IMG/VR virus record: IMGVR_UViG_3300035140_000050
DNA length: 16,750 nt
Source: a virus
Direction: 5' to 3' (one strand)
Of this stretch, positions 7,261-15,061 are shown in pieces. How positions within the stretch are numbered: the first letter of the stretch is position 1; the number at the start of each line of letters is the position of its first letter. The notes under the pieces are model-generated. The model ran no database searches, had not been told where the DNA came from, and saw nothing but the letters and a program-made list of their open reading frames with translations. The position numbers were made by a program, and so were the translations under genes.

Positions 7261-7452
7261 TTGAGGAACGCCGTGGATTTTGAGCCCGAAAAGGATGCCT
7301 GGGACTTATTGAAAGCGGCTGGCTACAAAGAACATCGCTTCGAGATAGCCCCGATTGGTCGGGCACCGACGGAGAAAGAGTATTTAGCGATTTGGTATCT
7401 TTGTGACGAGTGGGATTGGGCTTGGGGAGGATATTCCGATGGCCAAGACTAA
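7261..7452 (+). CDS. small hypothetical protein (Trp/acidic-rich, 63 aa)
   Basis: ORF opens with TTG 4 nt after the tRNA, so the start is uncertain. It overlaps the next gene's start by 14 nt. Confidence 0.35.
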   Translation: MRNAVDFEPEKDAWDLLKAAGYKEHRFEIAPIGRAPTEKEYLAIWYLCDEWDWAWGGYSDGQD

Positions 7453-7702
7453 GATCGTTCACTGCAGACGAGATCCCTATGATGTCTACGTAGGGCGCCC
7501 CTCGAAATGGGGAAATCCCTTCAAAGTCGGAATCCACGGAACACGGACGGAAGTCATTAAGAGATATCGAGCTTGGATATCAGAGCAACCGGAACTGATG
7601 GCCGAGGTGCGTATACTCAAAGGCAGAGTTCTCGGCTGCTGGTGCGCGCCTCTTCCTTGTCATGCCGAAGTGCTAGCCGAGCTAGCAGATCAGGGGGAGT
7701 AA
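7439..7702 (+). CDS. DUF4326-family protein
   Basis: ATG 7439 with RBS ggggagga 7 nt upstream. Motifs match my recollection of DUF4326: IVHCRRDPYDVYVGRPSKWGNPF ... GRVLGCWCAPLPCHAEVL. Confidence 0.55.
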   Translation: MAKTKIVHCRRDPYDVYVGRPSKWGNPFKVGIHGTRTEVIKRYRAWISEQPELMAEVRILKGRVLGCWCAPLPCHAEVLAELADQGE

Positions 7703-9441: not shown

Positions 9442-9576
9442 ATGGCTGACGATAATGATCAAGAGTTGCCAGTAGATTGGGCTGAATTAGTATTAGACAA
9501 TAAGAGTACCGAGGACGAGCTAGACGAGGAGATGATGACCACATTTGATGAGTGGTCTGGACCAGACGAAGATTGA
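9442..9576 (+). CDS. 44-aa strongly acidic peptide (MADDNDQELPVDWAELVLDNKSTEDELDEEMMTTFDEWSGPDED)
   Basis: ATG 9442 lies 3 nt after the previous stop, with gggtggtga upstream. Below the track cutoff. Confidence 0.35.
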   Translation: MADDNDQELPVDWAELVLDNKSTEDELDEEMMTTFDEWSGPDED

Positions 9577-9854
9577 TAGGAAAAAAGTTGCCAAGAATCA
9601 GAATTACTCCTGCGGCCAGACAAGAGGCATTAGATGCTATTTCCAGGACACTAGAATGGCGGCTGGATCAAAAAGGTCCGCTTAGCTACACATCGTCCCA
9701 TGAGGTTTTGGGGATCATCACCGAAGAGTATCTTGAACTTATTGATGCAGTCAAAGCAAACGACCGCGCTGCGATTATTCGAGAGCTTCATGATATTGGC
9801 GTAGCGGCCATTTTTGGAGTAGCCAGCGCTGAGGAAGGAGGGTTTGATTGGTGA
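9552..9854 (+). CDS. possible MazG-like all-alpha NTP pyrophosphohydrolase
   Basis: Pattern LGIITEEYLELIDAVKAND...IIRELHDIGVAAIFGVAS resembles the EE..EL......D helical pair of MazG/HisE-type NTP-PPases. Start uncertain: ATG 9552 or TTG 9588. Confidence 0.35.
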   Translation: MVWTRRRLIGKKLPRIRITPAARQEALDAISRTLEWRLDQKGPLSYTSSHEVLGIITEEYLELIDAVKANDRAAIIRELHDIGVAAIFGVASAEEGGFDW

Positions 9855-10570
9855 GTCTATTCTACAAAGAAAATCCCAAAACGCGGGGCAGCGGAATTAT
9901 TTGTGCAATTCCGCAGAGAGGAACATGCCCCAACAAATGTTCGGATTGCTTCTTCCAATCTGGCAGATCGTATCTGGAGCCCCTTGAGGATAATCTCCCA
10001 AACATGCCGACGTATGATGATGTAGAAGGTCGCGTCGTGCGCGTGAACGACGGCAATGACAGCAACGTGCAGCGTGATCTAGTAATAAGCGAGACGGCGC
10101 GATATCCTCTACGGTTCTACAATACAGCAATCCCATCACTAGATTTTCCGGCGCCCGTTGTCTTGACCGTAAATCCCGGTGAAATGACGGATGAGGACTT
10201 TCATGGGATAGACGAGCCACCGATTAATCTGATGTTCGTGCGTATTCGAACGAATACATGGAACATGGCTACGGTGGCGCGTGCGGTAGCATATTATACT
10301 TCACGCGATGTGCCCGTTGTCCTGACATTCATGGCATACTTTGACCAGGACATCTCGCCCCAATATCGGCGCGACTACGAATTCCGTAAGCGCACATTGA
10401 ATTCGTATTGGTGCATCACCAAGGATGCTTACGCGCGCGTGATGGAGCGGTTCAAAGATGATTTTCCCGTCTACTCATGTAGTGGTCCAGGGCCGAGCGG
10501 CTGCAAGCATTGCGGGAACTGTCTGCGCGAATATTTCGCAACTATGGAACGGATGCAAAAGAATTTATAG
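9848..10570 (+). CDS. CxxxCxxC protein, possible radical-SAM-like enzyme (240 aa)
   Basis: Strong RBS aggaaggaggg immediately upstream of TTG 9848 / GTG 9851. N-terminal motif GTCPNKCSDCFF has C-x3-C-x2-C spacing. A second Cys cluster CSGPGPSGCKHCGNC lies near the C-terminus. No clear GGE/SAM motif seen. Confidence 0.35.
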   Translation: MVSLFYKENPKTRGSGIICAIPQRGTCPNKCSDCFFQSGRSYLEPLEDNLPNMPTYDDVEGRVVRVNDGNDSNVQRDLVISETARYPLRFYNTAIPSLDFPAPVVLTVNPGEMTDEDFHGIDEPPINLMFVRIRTNTWNMATVARAVAYYTSRDVPVVLTFMAYFDQDISPQYRRDYEFRKRTLNSYWCITKDAYARVMERFKDDFPVYSCSGPGPSGCKHCGNCLREYFATMERMQKNL

Positions 10571-10648
10571 GCTAATAACATGCGCAATAAGGGCCACACC
10601 TTTAGGAGACCCATAAAAAGAGGCTCTGAGGTCTTGATGAGAGGATAA

Positions 10649-11230
10649 ATGACTATGAGCGAGGATTGTCATGATTGCTACGGGCCTGATCCTGTTCGGT
10701 GGGAAGGAGAGCCCGTCGGCCCCCGCATGCGGGAAGGAGGGAGCATAAGGGAGGACATGCAGTGTCCGAACTGTGGTAGCCACGAGGTCTTTCCGGACCA
10801 CGGAGGTTACTATTGGCATTTTGATGATGACGAGGGGCGGCCCTGGCTGTGTAATGGGTGCGGGGGCCGCCCCAAACGGGCTTTTTTGATTTGTCCCGTT
10901 CGGGGAGTTTCTCCCGATGAGACCAAAGATCTGGTTGAGAGCCTCGAAAAGGACGGCTGGACGATTCATTGGCCCCCGCGCGATACAAACCAGGACGACC
11001 CAACGGGGCTGAGGATATGTGAAGATAACAGACAGGCCATTGCGGACGCCGCAGTGGTTTTCTTTGTATGGGACGGCAAATCCCAAGGGTGCCTTTTCGA
11101 TCTTGGGATGGCCTTTGCTATGAAAAAGCCTGTTCGATGCATGCTGCTTCCTCAGCCAACCGACGGCAAAAGCTTTCAGAATATGGCGCGGGAATGGGAG
11201 CAACGGACGACTCCGGAGAAAGAGAAATGA
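10649..11230 (+). CDS. nucleoside 2-deoxyribosyltransferase (NDT/DNPH1)-like domain fused to N-terminal zinc-ribbon motifs
   Basis: C-terminal half FLICPVRG...DNRQAIADAAVVFFVWDGKSQGCLFDLGMAFAMKKPV matches the NDT/Rcl flavodoxin-like fold pattern (..D.aD.vva..dg...Gt.fElG.A.a.gKPV). N-terminal half has CHDC...CPNCG...CNGCGG. RBS gagagga. Confidence 0.45.
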   Translation: MTMSEDCHDCYGPDPVRWEGEPVGPRMREGGSIREDMQCPNCGSHEVFPDHGGYYWHFDDDEGRPWLCNGCGGRPKRAFLICPVRGVSPDETKDLVESLEKDGWTIHWPPRDTNQDDPTGLRICEDNRQAIADAAVVFFVWDGKSQGCLFDLGMAFAMKKPVRCMLLPQPTDGKSFQNMAREWEQRTTPEKEK

Positions 11231-11520
11231 GGATACACCAGATATTGTCCCCCGAAATAAGGGACAAGATACCTGATGTCTCTTTTGTCTGCCTGATTCG
11301 CCTTTCTCTAGTACCCGAAGCGCCTGATCAGGCGATGCTGCGGCCAGAGTCCGTGAAGTCGCTAGCTCAATTTCTTGAGCAATCAGACTGGCCCGAAAAT
11401 GCCGCCCTCCTTCTTACCCCTCACGGTAACCTTGAATTAGGATGGGCTGAGGGGGGCTATGATTGCGGCATTGAATTCAAGGACGTAGATAGTGTCGAGT
11501 CCTGGAAATTCGAGGTTTGA
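11227..11520 (+). CDS. hypothetical protein (97 aa)
   Basis: The track ORF 11068-11520 overlaps the previous gene. ATG 11227 is preceded by ggagaaagagaa and forms an ATGA overlap with the previous stop. Confidence 0.45.
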   Translation: MRIHQILSPEIRDKIPDVSFVCLIRLSLVPEAPDQAMLRPESVKSLAQFLEQSDWPENAALLLTPHGNLELGWAEGGYDCGIEFKDVDSVESWKFEV

Positions 11521-11926
11521 AGTGGATCCGGTTAGCCTTCGTCGACTGACCTTAGAAGAAGTTCAGCAGGGCGGGCTTCATTTGGTTGATTTTGATGGGA
11601 CAATGACTACGGGAGGCTACCCCGACATTGGGGAATACAGGCCCAAAGTTATAGCCTATCTTTCTCTCCTTCGTACCACGGCCCCCGTTGTGATCTGGAC
11701 ATGCCGAACATCTCTAGCACTGTGCAAGACCCCAATTGATGTTTCTGAAGCCGTGCGGCAAATCGAGGCGTGGCTAACAGAGAACGAGATCGATCAAATT
11801 GACGGCATCTTGATGCACGACAAACCGATCTGCATATCCTACATTGGCGACGAGACAATTCATCCCGATGAAATAGAACGAGTGAACGAGATCATAAACT
11901 TAGTTGCGTTGAGTAAGACAAAGTAA
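11492..11926 (+). CDS. HAD-superfamily phosphatase-like small protein
   Basis: HAD motif I LVDFDGTMT (DxDGT), motif II VVIWTCRTS, motif IV-like YIGDETIHPDE. Alternative GTG start at 11522 with gaggt 5 nt upstream. Confidence 0.5.
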   Translation: MSSPGNSRFEVDPVSLRRLTLEEVQQGGLHLVDFDGTMTTGGYPDIGEYRPKVIAYLSLLRTTAPVVIWTCRTSLALCKTPIDVSEAVRQIEAWLTENEIDQIDGILMHDKPICISYIGDETIHPDEIERVNEIINLVALSKTK

Positions 11927-11938
11927 AGCACTCAAGTC

Positions 11939-11965
11939 TTGACTAAAGATTAGTTGTGGTATTTT
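11939..11965 (+). promoter_or_regulatory. candidate sigma70-like promoter: TTGACT - 15 nt - TGg-TATTTT (extended -10)
   Basis: Sits in the 52-nt gap after a long run of translationally coupled genes. Hexamers read directly from the sequence. The spacer is short (15 nt), hence low confidence. Confidence 0.25.
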
Positions 11966-11978
11966 GCAGGAATAGATC

Positions 11979-12158
11979 ATGGTACACGGTATATACGCCT
12001 ACATCAACAGAGATGCCCTCAGAGACCATGTTAAGCGCGTATGTAAGAAAAATACAAAAGCAAAATGTAAGTGCTGCCAAAAGTGTCCTTTTAGGGACGC
12101 AGTAGAGAACATGTTGGCTGTTCTGGCTGTGGAGAAGAAACTTGGGAAGCATAAGTGA
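11979..12158 (+). CDS. 59-aa Cys-rich basic small protein (…CKKNTKAKCKCCQKCPF…)
   Basis: ATG 11979 with RBS aggaa 6 nt upstream, ending TGA 12156-12158. Below the track cutoff. Confidence 0.4.
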   Translation: MVHGIYAYINRDALRDHVKRVCKKNTKAKCKCCQKCPFRDAVENMLAVLAVEKKLGKHK

Positions 12159-12714
12159 TACTGAGCTTGAGCGTTTTCTGCTCTTCTCAATCGCCGTGGC
12201 CGGCAAGACAGCTTGGATGATCGAGAAAGCAATGGACGCCTTTCTTGGTGATGCAAAGCAGCCGTTTGCCGAGGTTCGACGGCTGGTTAAACAGCGTCGG
12301 CTGAGGAGCAGGCTCAAGCAGGCCCGAATGGGGCAATACGCTAAGATAACCAGGGGCTTCAAGGAGGTCGCATTCAGCGGCCTTGATCTGCGTACCTGCA
12401 CTCCCGACGATCTCATGACGATTCACGGTATCGGTCCCAAGACGGCCCGCTTCTTCCTGCTCTACACGAGGAAGGATGCTCGATACGCTGTACTGGACAC
12501 TCATATCTTGGCTTTCCTTAGAGAAGCAGGGCACAAGGTTCCTAAGACGACACCACAAGGAGCCAAACGATACGCAGAGCTTGAGGCGTTGGTCTTGAAG
12601 ATTGCTGACGAGCAGGGTGTGAGGCCTGCCGATTTTGATACGGCCATTTGGATGAGCCGAGCCAGGCGTAATCCAAATACAGGACGAGCGAATCCGGGGG
12701 TGCCTGAGCTATGA
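12142..12714 (+). CDS. HhH-GPD superfamily DNA glycosylase, small 8-oxoguanine-glycosylase (Ogg2/thermostable Ogg)-like
   Basis: Helix-hairpin-helix IHGIGPKTARFFL followed by an Asp-containing segment (RYAVLDTHILAFL), plus N-terminal FSIAVAGKTA resembling the F.ILTANSSA block of small Oggs. TTG start at 12142. Confidence 0.5.
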   Translation: MGSISDTELERFLLFSIAVAGKTAWMIEKAMDAFLGDAKQPFAEVRRLVKQRRLRSRLKQARMGQYAKITRGFKEVAFSGLDLRTCTPDDLMTIHGIGPKTARFFLLYTRKDARYAVLDTHILAFLREAGHKVPKTTPQGAKRYAELEALVLKIADEQGVRPADFDTAIWMSRARRNPNTGRANPGVPEL

Positions 12715-12965
12715 GCAAGAAGTGGAAGACGGAAGCTATCGCTAAACGGGTGAGGGAGGCCAAGAACATCGTTATTGCTACGCTCGGGGTAGTGGGTGGG
12801 GAAGTGCTGCCCGAGACTCAACTCGATAAACTAGCCCACGACGACATCGATCTTTTGGCACTCTATATGGAACTTGAGGATTCTTTCTATATAGAGATCC
12901 AGGAGGATACACCTCCTAAGACAGTGCAGGATTGCATTGATCTGGCAATTCAGGAGCTACGCTAG
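12711..12965 (+). CDS. acyl-carrier-protein-like protein lacking the phosphopantetheine-attachment Ser
   Basis: ATGA overlap with the previous gene. LAHDDIDLLALYMELEDSFYIEIQEDTPPKTVQDCIDLAIQEL aligns by eye to E. coli ACP [41 protein letters not shown], but the DSL serine is replaced (DDI). Confidence 0.5.
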   Translation: MSKKWKTEAIAKRVREAKNIVIATLGVVGGEVLPETQLDKLAHDDIDLLALYMELEDSFYIEIQEDTPPKTVQDCIDLAIQELR

Positions 12966-12983
12966 CTCTAGAGAGCGCTGACC

Positions 12984-13226
12984 ATGATACGGCTCATCCA
13001 GTGCCCCAAGAGCACTCTCAGAGGAATCATCAGGGGAGCGATCAGAGGCTACATTAACGACCACCCCGGTACGCTTGATATTCAGCACGTTGAGAGCCTT
13101 GCGAAGAGAGTGACGGGGTGCGTAGCGGGCGCGGTTTCGGTCGCCCTCGATAATCTCAAGGATCAGATAGAAGAGCTTAAGCAGTCTGCAGATTCCATTC
13201 CCGCCAAAGTTCCCAATGAAAACTGA
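12984..13226 (+). CDS. hypothetical protein (80 aa)
   Basis: ORF with a weak RBS and no motif. Confidence 0.4.
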   Translation: MIRLIQCPKSTLRGIIRGAIRGYINDHPGTLDIQHVESLAKRVTGCVAGAVSVALDNLKDQIEELKQSADSIPAKVPNEN

Positions 13227-13277
13227 GCCCCCTTGACTTGCCCATGATTTGGTCCCTGTATTTGTAGGGAGTGTCCT

Positions 13278-13892
13278 ATGGGTAGAATCTACGCCGATCT
13301 CGATGAGCTTATGGAAGCTGCTCGTAACTCCGGGGTTACCCGAGACGACGTGATAATGATCAACGGAAAGCCCGTAAAACTGCGCCCAAAGATCCGCTCC
13401 CACTGTCTTCCTGGAGGCTTAAATAACCCCGATAGGTGGACCCCCCAGAGGCCGTGGTTCGAAACACATACCGTACAATGGGGCGACATGGGAGTAGTTA
13501 TCGGATCCAAGGGCACATACCGCACCGCGTTTTTTGAAGTATTTTCGACCATTGACCCAAGATTCGTGCGGGGCGAGGGAAGTACAGTCGAAGAGGCCGA
13601 GGCAGACGCGTGGCAAAAAACAGTGAAGTTCTGCAAGTGCCAGAATCATGAATTCGAACGAGGCACGTATAGAAACGGCGCGGGACTCTGCAAGCACTGT
13701 GGTATGTTCAAATCGGGTGTCTTCCCCCCGAGTACGCATTGTACGATCTGTGGCATCCCCACTTATTGGACTTATGATACGGATGATAACTGGTATTGTG
13801 AGAAACATGCCAATGACATTCCTGAGGAGAAGCTGACTGCCTCGGGCAAGTTTATCCGCGATATACGGAGGGACGAAAAAAATGACTCCTAA
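13278..13892 (+). CDS. hypothetical protein with C-terminal Cys/His cluster (CKC..H...CKHCG...HCTICG...CEKH)
   Basis: ATG 13278 with RBS taggga 6 nt upstream. Confidence 0.5.
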   Translation: MGRIYADLDELMEAARNSGVTRDDVIMINGKPVKLRPKIRSHCLPGGLNNPDRWTPQRPWFETHTVQWGDMGVVIGSKGTYRTAFFEVFSTIDPRFVRGEGSTVEEAEADAWQKTVKFCKCQNHEFERGTYRNGAGLCKHCGMFKSGVFPPSTHCTICGIPTYWTYDTDDNWYCEKHANDIPEEKLTASGKFIRDIRRDEKNDS

Positions 13893-14574
13893 CGAATTGT
13901 ACGCATGCCCACCAATACGGACGAGTTCCGACATATGGGGGCTACGTAATTTTATATCTCTTGACCTAGATGACGTCGAGGAGGGGGCGAACACTAAAAT
14001 AGAGCTAAGATATTACGCACAGCATCAGTTTGATGATCGTCGCGGATGGAATCTCTTCTCGGTTTGGTATCAAGACAAGCCGATAATGATATGTCAGGCA
14101 GCCGGCAGAGAGCTGGACGATTATACAAACGACTTCGTCACCGATCCAAAGGGATATGAGGAGATGTTTCATTATATTGCCTCCCTCATCGATTCCTATG
14201 CTTCGCCCGAGGCTAAGTACGGTCCAGATGTTGACCGCGAAGATCTGACAACATTTTATGGTGCATCTCTGGACGAATTCTACGCCCCAGCAGGCGTTAG
14301 TCCTAAGCATAAGGTTAACGATGAGGTAGTTGTTTTAGTTCTCGAAGACCACCTACGTCACTGGGAGTCCAAAAAGATCAAGACATGGGTACGAATCTCA
14401 GACGTGCGCCCACGCAATCCCAAGATCACCTACTCGGGGGTACAGATAAACCGATGCTGGGAAGGGTTTGGACCTGGTACCCACATGGTAACTGCGGCTG
14501 GCGAGGGAAACGTAATGGTCCACTTCAATGAGTCAGAGATTTGTGAAGACGAGGATCTCCCTAAGGGGGAATAG
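13882..14574 (+). CDS. hypothetical protein (230 aa)
   Basis: ATG 13882 with RBS ggaggga 8 nt upstream. Overlaps the previous gene by 11 nt. Confidence 0.5.
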   Translation: MTPNELYACPPIRTSSDIWGLRNFISLDLDDVEEGANTKIELRYYAQHQFDDRRGWNLFSVWYQDKPIMICQAAGRELDDYTNDFVTDPKGYEEMFHYIASLIDSYASPEAKYGPDVDREDLTTFYGASLDEFYAPAGVSPKHKVNDEVVVLVLEDHLRHWESKKIKTWVRISDVRPRNPKITYSGVQINRCWEGFGPGTHMVTAAGEGNVMVHFNESEICEDEDLPKGE

Positions 14575-14602
14575 AGGGCAAGTTCTTTGAGAGGAGGCAG
14601 GT

Positions 14603-15061
14603 ATGTCCTGGGAATCATGGGAAAAGGCGGCTGAAAAGGGGCCGGAGGCAATTGCGTTGAAGGTTGGCATTTTCGTGGCAGCGGTCTTAGTGCTCGCAGC
14701 AGTCGGACGCTTCGTGTTGTACCCCCTCACGCAGGGGGCCGAGGTCGTAACGAAAACGCTCGATGCGGACAACATGATCTACAACTACGAATGGTTCAAG
14801 CAGCGGAACCAGGACATCCAGGCTATCGATTCAAAGGTTCGGGGTGCCGACGAAGCCGTGAAAATGTTCAAGGACGAGGCTGGTCCGCGCAAGGACTGGA
14901 AGCGCGGCGACCGTGAGGAGTCGGCCCGCCTTAGCTCAATTCTGCTGGGGTTGAAGCAGCAGAGAGCAGATCTGGCCGCAGAGTACAACGCCCGGTCTCA
15001 GATGGCGAATAGGTCGCTATTCAGGACGGGCGAGTTGCCGGAGCGCATTAGCGTAGAGTAG
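14603..15061 (+). CDS. membrane-anchored protein (one N-terminal TM, helical C-terminal domain)
   Basis: ATG 14603 with RBS gaggagg 5 nt upstream. Hydrophobic segment LKVGIFVAAVLVLAAVGRFVLY. Confidence 0.5.
   Translation: MSWESWEKAAEKGPEAIALKVGIFVAAVLVLAAVGRFVLYPLTQGAEVVTKTLDADNMIYNYEWFKQRNQDIQAIDSKVRGADEAVKMFKDEAGPRKDWKRGDREESARLSSILLGLKQQRADLAAEYNARSQMANRSLFRTGELPERISVE

Follow-up and report, generated by a model that had tools for sequence, protein, structure and literature searches.

A phage homolog of acyl carrier protein with an acidic residue at the phosphopantetheine serine position, a candidate cofactor-less binding protein

A stretch of viral DNA, 16,750 nucleotides long (IMG/VR record IMGVR_UViG_3300035140_000050; hereafter, the window), encodes an 84-amino-acid (aa) protein that is, by its sequence statistics, a true homolog of acyl carrier proteins (ACPs) and in which an aspartate occupies the position of the serine that carries the phosphopantetheine cofactor. 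The explanation we favour, to which we give an even chance, is that the protein is a cofactor-less binding protein or decoy with the ACP fold, which would have given up the carrier function and whose partner would be one host protein that reads ACP. The ACP homology of the protein was already known (its JGI annotation is "acyl carrier protein"), as were ACP homologs of phages and cofactor-less ACPs of apicomplexa; what is new is the loss of the carrier features. The gene, its parts and its neighbors are listed in Table 1.

Four NCBIfam models of ACP matched the protein at E values between 1.8e-8 and 6.3e-7, and TIGR00517 did so at 3.1e-5, with scores (23.8-34.5 bits) that lie far under the curated equivalog cutoffs of 66-106 bits (TIGR00517, NF002149, and NF002151). 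The PHROG "acyl carrier protein" (phrog_5934; PHROGs have no curated cutoff) was matched at E 1.4e-7, residues 7-79 aligning with positions 9-84 of 93 in the profile, and P0015, one of the four relatives described below, matched it at E 4.9e-5. Among PDB sequences, phmmer found ACPs at E values down to 7.6e-5, and ACPs or carrier subunits made up 44 of the 55 listed matches. When a profile of the five family sequences was compared by HHalign with 73 serine-containing ACPs, the probability was 99.2% (E 3.5e-19, 72 columns), and a local hidden Markov model (HMM) made from serine-containing ACPs only matched the open reading frame (ORF) at E 1.4e-13 in a small local ORF set. These NCBIfam, PHROG, PDB, and HHalign matches bear out the kinship to ACP that had been claimed in an earlier note on this DNA, made from the letters of the sequence alone. 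The alignment to Escherichia coli ACP drawn by eye in that note is the same as the one produced by HMMER ("klahDDIDllalymeleDsFyieI" against solved ACPs, and "ktvqdcidl" against "atvqdaadm"). It had further proposed an HMM search against Pfam PF00550 (PP-binding) and a structure prediction. The former gave no match to the window protein, even at E<=10, and weak matches to two of the five family members (best E 2.9e-4). The latter, obtained with AlphaFold2 (AF2) on a 120-sequence alignment, reached a predicted local distance difference test score (pLDDT) of 88.6 and has the ACP topology with helices at residues 2-25, 38-41, 45-59, and 72-80, helix III not being formed. With this model, the top 50 PDB matches in Foldseek were all ACPs, at template-modeling (TM) scores of 0.77-0.83 and a root-mean-square deviation of about 1.5 Å.

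In every alignment (HMMER to solved ACPs and HHalign), Asp45 (GAC, 12843-12845) takes the serine column. This column contains serine in 111 of 111 canonical ACPs and an aspartate or glutamate in the window protein and all four of its relatives (D, D, E, E, and D in the five-member family). The missing serine of the DSL motif, replaced to give DDI, was thus correctly noticed before. In the model, helix II begins with Asp45, just as that of ACP begins with Ser36. A modified serine elsewhere in the protein, the case that had been named as speaking against a permanently unmodified protein, is rejected on grounds of conservation: its only serines, S2 and S58, are not conserved, those of the relatives align with N19, G30, and A50 of the window protein, and no other serine is conserved across the family. 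Since the attachment serine is lost, no alternative serine is conserved, and the gene is under purifying selection (see below), the protein can soundly be taken to lack the canonical cofactor permanently.

The substitution is not the only departure from canonical ACP. In a column-by-column comparison of the family with the 111 canonical ACPs, L32, D35, D38, M44 (as I), L46, E47, E48 (as D), F50, E53, I54, V65, and D70 were kept. Changed, by contrast, were the near-invariant columns F28 (to L or I), G33 (to A), V43 (to Y or F), D51 (to Y), P55 (to Q), Y71 (to L), and I72 (to A or V). E41, a glutamate in 110 of the 111 ACPs and presumably a key contact for many ACP partner enzymes, is alanine or serine in the family. 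Helix II of the window protein, the "recognition helix," therefore keeps the equivalents of D38, E47, and E48, has lost E41 (A50), and carries Y52 in place of V43. The two columns replaced by Pro-Pro are occupied by alanine in 109 and by glutamate in 110 of the 111 ACPs; with the deletion that follows, helix III is shortened by two residues, and the model has coil at residues 60-70. The Cys75 column contains cysteine in five of five family members versus 1 of 111 canonical ACPs (valine in 85, alanine in 24). In pocket and helix III together, the columns F28, V43, A59, I62, A68, Y71, and I72, which we take to surround the acyl-chain cavity in E. coli ACP, have become L, Y, P, a deletion, C, L, and A. 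We read this pattern as a carrier function that was lost (neither arm nor pocket being left) and a recognition surface that was re-tuned. The product as a whole is acidic (isoelectric point [pI] 4.55; 17 D+E versus 10 K+R). It has a basic N-terminal extension, positions 3-7 of which are gaps in 109 of the 111 canonical ACPs. The MSKK..W/A..R motif of this extension is common to P0003 and P0016, and the first helix of the AF2 model (residues 2-25) covers it.

Three very large searches returned only four relatives, all on syntenic uncultivated phage contigs (Table 1). The HMMER search of 1.84 billion representatives gave 13 matches, two of which were true family members and the rest ordinary ACPs. 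No relative was found in the IMG/VR scan, by tblastn of the window protein against 50,697 GenBank phage records (none at E<=1), or in the GTDB genome scan, so that neither a prophage nor a host assignment was obtained. The metagenome scan yielded one further copy, on L014 (1877-2112), a P0015-type gene whose frame is split by a 1-nucleotide (nt) deletion (CTTGAGGAT to CTTAGGAT), the result of faulty assembly or else a naturally occurring null allele. The ratio of nonsynonymous to synonymous divergence (dN/dS) was 0.20-0.63 over all family pairs and 0.20-0.40 in comparisons with the window gene, at dS values up to about 1.4-1.6; 25 columns are invariant among the five sequences, and the reading frame is intact in at least 24 contigs from several samples. 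Because pairwise dN/dS is low at this degree of divergence, the ACP-like gene is maintained by purifying selection.

How might such a protein act? We propose that it is made among the early or accessory genes of an alphaproteobacterial-type phage and that it would work stoichiometrically, as a small acidic binding module and not as an acyl carrier. The acidic face at the start of helix II (D44, D/E45, D47, E54, E56, and D57) would dock on a basic surface of the partner, and the acidic side chain that replaces the serine would form the helix cap and occupy the place that the phosphate of the cofactor would otherwise take. The partner would be one particular host protein that normally reads ACP, and the phage protein its cofactor-independent decoy or modulator. 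A single specialized partner is favored; that it belongs to the host is an even call, that it belongs to the phage a distinctly smaller chance. A sponge for all ACP clients is probably not what the protein is, because E41 and many other features of the surface have been lost or changed. The general mimic of the earlier note, imagined to titrate ACP-binding host proteins, is weakened in the same way by the loss of E41, the changes at G33, F28, V43, P55, A59, E60, Y71, and I72, and the shortened helix III. That the protein may titrate such host proteins is an idea that draws on the apo-ACP precedent (see below) and on the retained equivalents of D35, D38, E47, and E48.

Several points weigh against the proposed binding protein or decoy. 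With E41 and further conserved residues of the surface gone, the usual ACP clients are less likely to be bound, and the family is confined to one syntenic phage clade, so that co-occurrence cannot discriminate between candidates. Serine and aspartate are both good helix N-caps, and the preference for Asp or Glu can be explained by N-capping alone, phosphate mimicry not being required. The sample of acidic substitutions is biased, given that the search queries themselves carry Asp at the serine column. AF2 on the five family sequences alone gave a pLDDT of only 57 and ACP matches that were not significant (E 0.37, TM 0.42-0.48); the confident model depends on a deep alignment that is dominated by canonical ACPs, because of which the predicted structure confirms compatibility with the fold and is not independent proof. 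The homology claim is carried by the statistics of the sequence comparisons.

A bolder version, which we consider unlikely, is that the Asp or Glu permanently imitates the phosphate of the cofactor, phages having evolved a constitutive ACP decoy at least twice, one that would need no host coenzyme A or transferase and would lock onto one ACP-reading host enzyme. If this were true, candidate targets would include an acyltransferase of phospholipid or lipid A synthesis, the desulfurase IscS, and the stringent-response enzyme SpoT, and membrane synthesis or stress signaling would be reprogrammed during infection.

The strongest competitor, tentative as it is, makes the protein an accessory subunit of a phage-encoded protein or complex, stabilizing or regulating a phage partner and having no host ACP clients, in parallel to mitochondrial ACP on LYR-motif proteins or to the cofactor-less mitochondrial ACP (mACP) of Plasmodium on Isd11-Nfs1. 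Downstream of the ACP-like gene, genes for an Arg-rich protein of 80-95 aa and for proteins of 204 and 230 aa follow in strict synteny in the window, L001-L005, L006, and L007; in the window, the latter two lie at 13278..13892 and 13882..14574. The divergent recognition surface, with E41 lost, would fit a private partner, and a cofactor-less ACP acting as a structural subunit has a precedent (PMC8547962). The Arg-rich protein, whose orthologs on L001, L006, and L007 align over their full length and which has no family match in Pfam or PHROG, could, we infer, be a candidate for the phage partner. However, all relatives belong to one syntenic clade, so adjacency carries little information, and no LYR-type or ACP-binding family is recognizable among the neighbors with Pfam, PHROG, and PADLOC models.

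That the protein is a regulator or DNA-mimic inhibitor of the basic helix-hairpin-helix (HhH) glycosylase-like enzyme encoded upstream, resembling Ugi, the small acidic inhibitor of uracil-DNA glycosylase, is improbable. It is indeed small and acidic, its gene adjoins the glycosylase-like gene also in L001-L005 and L014, and the ATGA junction between the two, reported in the earlier note as translational coupling, is present in the sequence (gagctATGAgcaag; ATG 12711-12713 overlapping TGA 12712-12714 of the upstream ORF). The overlap is real, but a functional obligation does not follow from it: L006 keeps the ACP-like gene, yet tblastn found no glycosylase homolog in its 20-kb locus (best E 0.93), and in phiCbK and Erythrobacter phage L02 the gene that follows the glycosylase homolog is not ACP-like. 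As an obligatory partner, the glycosylase is ruled out by these two observations. Moreover, start overlaps are the norm along the whole window contig, and the starts of the relatives overlap whatever gene precedes them: the overlap is 20 nt long on L001 and 4 nt long on L006, where another small ORF is involved. Because L006 is without the glycosylase gene and the ACP-like start there overlaps a small Cys-rich ORF, the ATGA coupling is ordinary phage gene packing and no demonstration of a functional pair.

Very improbable is a protein that is still a carrier by non-canonical attachment, either via the thiol of Cys75 or via a residue modified by some unknown enzyme. The invariance of Cys75 in the family, at a column where cysteine is so rare among ACPs, would suit this idea; against it, Cys75 corresponds by homology to the E. 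coli Ala68 position in helix IV, which presumably points into the ACP core, away from the surface, the neighborhood encodes no loading enzyme, and we know of no precedent for carrier attachment via such a cysteine. No phosphopantetheinyl transferase, enzyme of fatty acid, polyketide, or nonribosomal peptide synthesis, or acyl ligase was found by Pfam scans among the 26 window ORFs or in the precomputed Pfam matches within about 20 kb around each relative, and the local HMM found no second ACP gene in the window or in the relatives' stretches. Least probable of all is a relic, a phage ACP gene that once worked and is now decaying without a function, which would account for the lost catalytic serine, the many lost conserved residues, and the broken frame of the L014 copy, but not for the intact frames of the other contigs, the invariant columns, or a dN/dS of 0.2-0.4 at dS up to about 1.5, and the L014 frameshift may itself be an assembly error.

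With its roughly 26 co-directional, tightly packed ORFs, the window resembles an early or accessory part of a large phage genome. The closest cultured homologs of the HhH glycosylase-like protein (42-46% identity) are from phiCbK-like Caulobacter phages and an Erythrobacter phage, which suggests an alphaproteobacterial host; further matches are from one Sinorhizobium phage and one Tunturiibacter phage. The small Cys-rich ORF upstream extends 17 nt into the glycosylase-like ORF, counted from the listed TTG start of the latter (12142). PADLOC defense models matched neither the ACP-like protein nor its neighbors. The MazG, deoxyribosyltransferase-like, phrog_1238-matching, and HhH glycosylase-like genes (9552..12714) form a run of nucleotide- and DNA-related accessory genes, which could point to base salvage or DNA modification; in the relatives, the opposite strand encodes another deoxyribosyltransferase/DUF4406 protein. 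Two observations concern other parts of the window. The C-terminal part of the 865-aa protein resembles eukaryotic major vault protein (MVP): Pfam gives matches to MVP_shoulder (E 9.5e-25) and to a vault repeat, and residues 481-777 align at E 5e-14 with residues 465-762 of MVP in solved vault structures. The protein has orthologs on L001, L002, and L006 and in three huge uncultured phage genomes (LR756500, LR756501, and LR756503; 462-735 kb; 42-46% identity). The only DNA-level similarity of positions 11000-15000 to GenBank phages lies at about 14744..14819 (+), inside ORF 14603..15061: 55-76 nt with 79-89% identity to Rhizobium phages of about 155 kb (RL2RES, RHph_I46, and others), within hypothetical genes, a strikingly brief and well-preserved match between DNAs that are unrelated elsewhere.

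Table 1. Features of the window around and within the ACP-like gene, and the related sequences used for comparison.
Feature	Coordinates or locus	Strand	Remarks
ACP-fold protein gene	12711..12965	+	ATG start; 84-aa product MSKKWKTEAIAKRVREAKNIVIATLGVVGGEVLPETQLDKLAHDDIDLLALYMELEDSFYIEIQEDTPPKTVQDCIDLAIQELR; ORF read from sequence
ATGA start/stop overlap	12711..12714	+	read directly from sequence; tight packing, possibly translational coupling
Basic N-terminal extension MSKKWKTEAIAKRVRE	12711..12758	+	lengthens helix I; absent from canonical ACPs
D44-D45-I46-D47 (codons GAC GAC ATC GAT)	12840..12851	+	replace the D35-S36-L37-D38 phosphopantetheine attachment motif
Helix II, "recognition helix," residues 45-59	12843..12887	+	model secondary structure and comparison with 111 ACPs
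Pro68-Pro69	12912..12917	+	replace Ala59-Glu60, then two-residue deletion; alignments
Invariant Cys75, helix IV	12933..12935	+	E. coli Ala68 position; family alignment
HNH endonuclease	483..1040
Major-vault-protein-like protein, 865 aa	2842..5439	+
DUF4326	7403..7702
MazG	9552..9854
Nucleoside 2-deoxyribosyltransferase-like protein	10649..11230		N-terminal zinc ribbon
HAD-like protein	11492..11926		matches phrog_1238
Small Cys-rich ORF, 59 aa (…CKKNTKAKCKCCQKCPF…)	11979..12158	+	conserved on L001 (9273-9452) and L006 (9807-10004)
HhH glycosylase-like protein, upstream neighbor	12142..12714	+	pI 10.1; Pfam Ogg-HhH E 1.2e-6, HHH E 2.3e-6; phrog_11575 E 9.6e-48
Conserved 80-aa protein, downstream neighbor	12984..13226	+	Arg-rich N-terminal helix; syntenic in all relatives
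Relative P0002 (fragment)	L007		89% identity to window protein; motif DDID
Relative P0003	L008		53% identity; motif DDLD
Relative P0015	L001-L005 (at least 24 contigs)		54% identity; motif DEID
Relative P0016	L006		52% identity; motif DEID
Second Ser-to-Asp group, P0012 and P0022	L009 407-649; L013 176-418

In many phages, genes for ACP homologs bear the annotation "auxiliary metabolic genes," none with a known role. A lineage that is under selection and lacks the serine, the acyl pocket, and helix III suggests that the phage ACP fold can serve a purpose other than that of a carrier, and it counsels caution, in that the annotation "acyl carrier protein" in a virus need not mean lipid metabolism. 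If an ACP client of the host were the target, phages would possess in this protein a natural, gene-encoded inhibitor acting on a pathway at which antibacterials are already aimed, and it would offer a handle for separating phosphate-dependent ACP contacts from those of the acyl-pantetheine arm.

Compared with bacterial AcpP (PF00550, TIGR00517, and NF002148-NF002151), the window protein has the same fold, size, and acidity and is collinear over about 72 residues, but it differs by S36D, G33A, E41A, V43Y, D51Y, P55Q, A68C, Y71L, and I72A, by the replacement of A59-E60 with P-P and the two-residue deletion, by the lack of helix III, and by the basic N-terminal extension. ACP homologs of phages (PHROG 5934 / 4154) are likewise small, single-domain, and encoded among early or accessory phage genes. 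Four from cultured phages were compared (phiCbK gp124, Erythrobacter phage R6L gp32, Ralstonia phage RP13 ORF197, and Xanthomonas phage PhiXhv-12), all of which keep D-S-L/I and, unlike the window protein, a normal helix III region. The function of phage ACP homologs "remains unclear" (PMC5463345), and in the literature we found no characterized function of a phage ACP, no specific report of Ser-to-Asp ACPs, and no account of a phage family in which the serine is replaced by an acidic residue and the pocket is dismantled.

Among the top 120 profile matches, the only non-serine sequences besides the window family were P0007 and the group P0012/P0020/P0022/P0105. The latter are ACP homologs of 79-80 aa with the motif LGADDLD that are otherwise canonical and AcpP-like; their contigs contain small ORFs, all on one strand, and encode a replication initiator of phage type (DnaD-like or O-like). 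Unlike in the window protein, G33 and E41 are retained in this group, helix III is normal, and Pfam PP-binding is among the precomputed matches. Identity between the two is 33-35% globally and 40% in the best BLASTP segment. Ser to Asp probably arose more than once, at least twice in phage-like DNA. P0007 (L010 5277-5687, L011, and L012) is a 136-aa cellular ACP homolog with the same exchange and a signal- or lipoprotein-like N-terminus. Its gene lies directly after an HNH endonuclease gene, as does that of the serine-containing phiCbK gp124 after HNH gp123 (L022 9638-10626). P0010 (161 aa) has tandem ACP-like domains, the first with LGADELD (Glu at the serine position) and the second with the canonical LGADSLD.

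A role directed at the host gains plausibility from three precedents. According to a passage in PMC4736557, which cites Keating 1995, obligate apo-ACP (engineered Ser to Ala) suppresses growth, and apo-ACP inhibits glycerol-3-phosphate acyltransferase. Like that E. coli protein, the phage protein would be an ACP beyond modification that is nonetheless biologically active; however, apo-ACP is otherwise wild-type AcpP, whereas the phage protein is without E41 and has a much changed pocket, so that its targets need not be the same. The contact of E. coli ACP with IscS needs D35, D38, and S36, and not E41 (PMC13343975), and both of these aspartates are kept in the window protein. In Plasmodium and other apicomplexa, finally, a mitochondrial ACP without phosphopantetheine works as a protein-binding subunit (Falekun et al. 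2021, PMC8547962). That protein is eukaryotic and organellar and has Isd11-Nfs1 as its partner, whereas the phage protein has no recognizable LYR-type partner and stands in an unrelated context; what the two have in common is an ACP that is kept under selection without the attachment serine or the cofactor.

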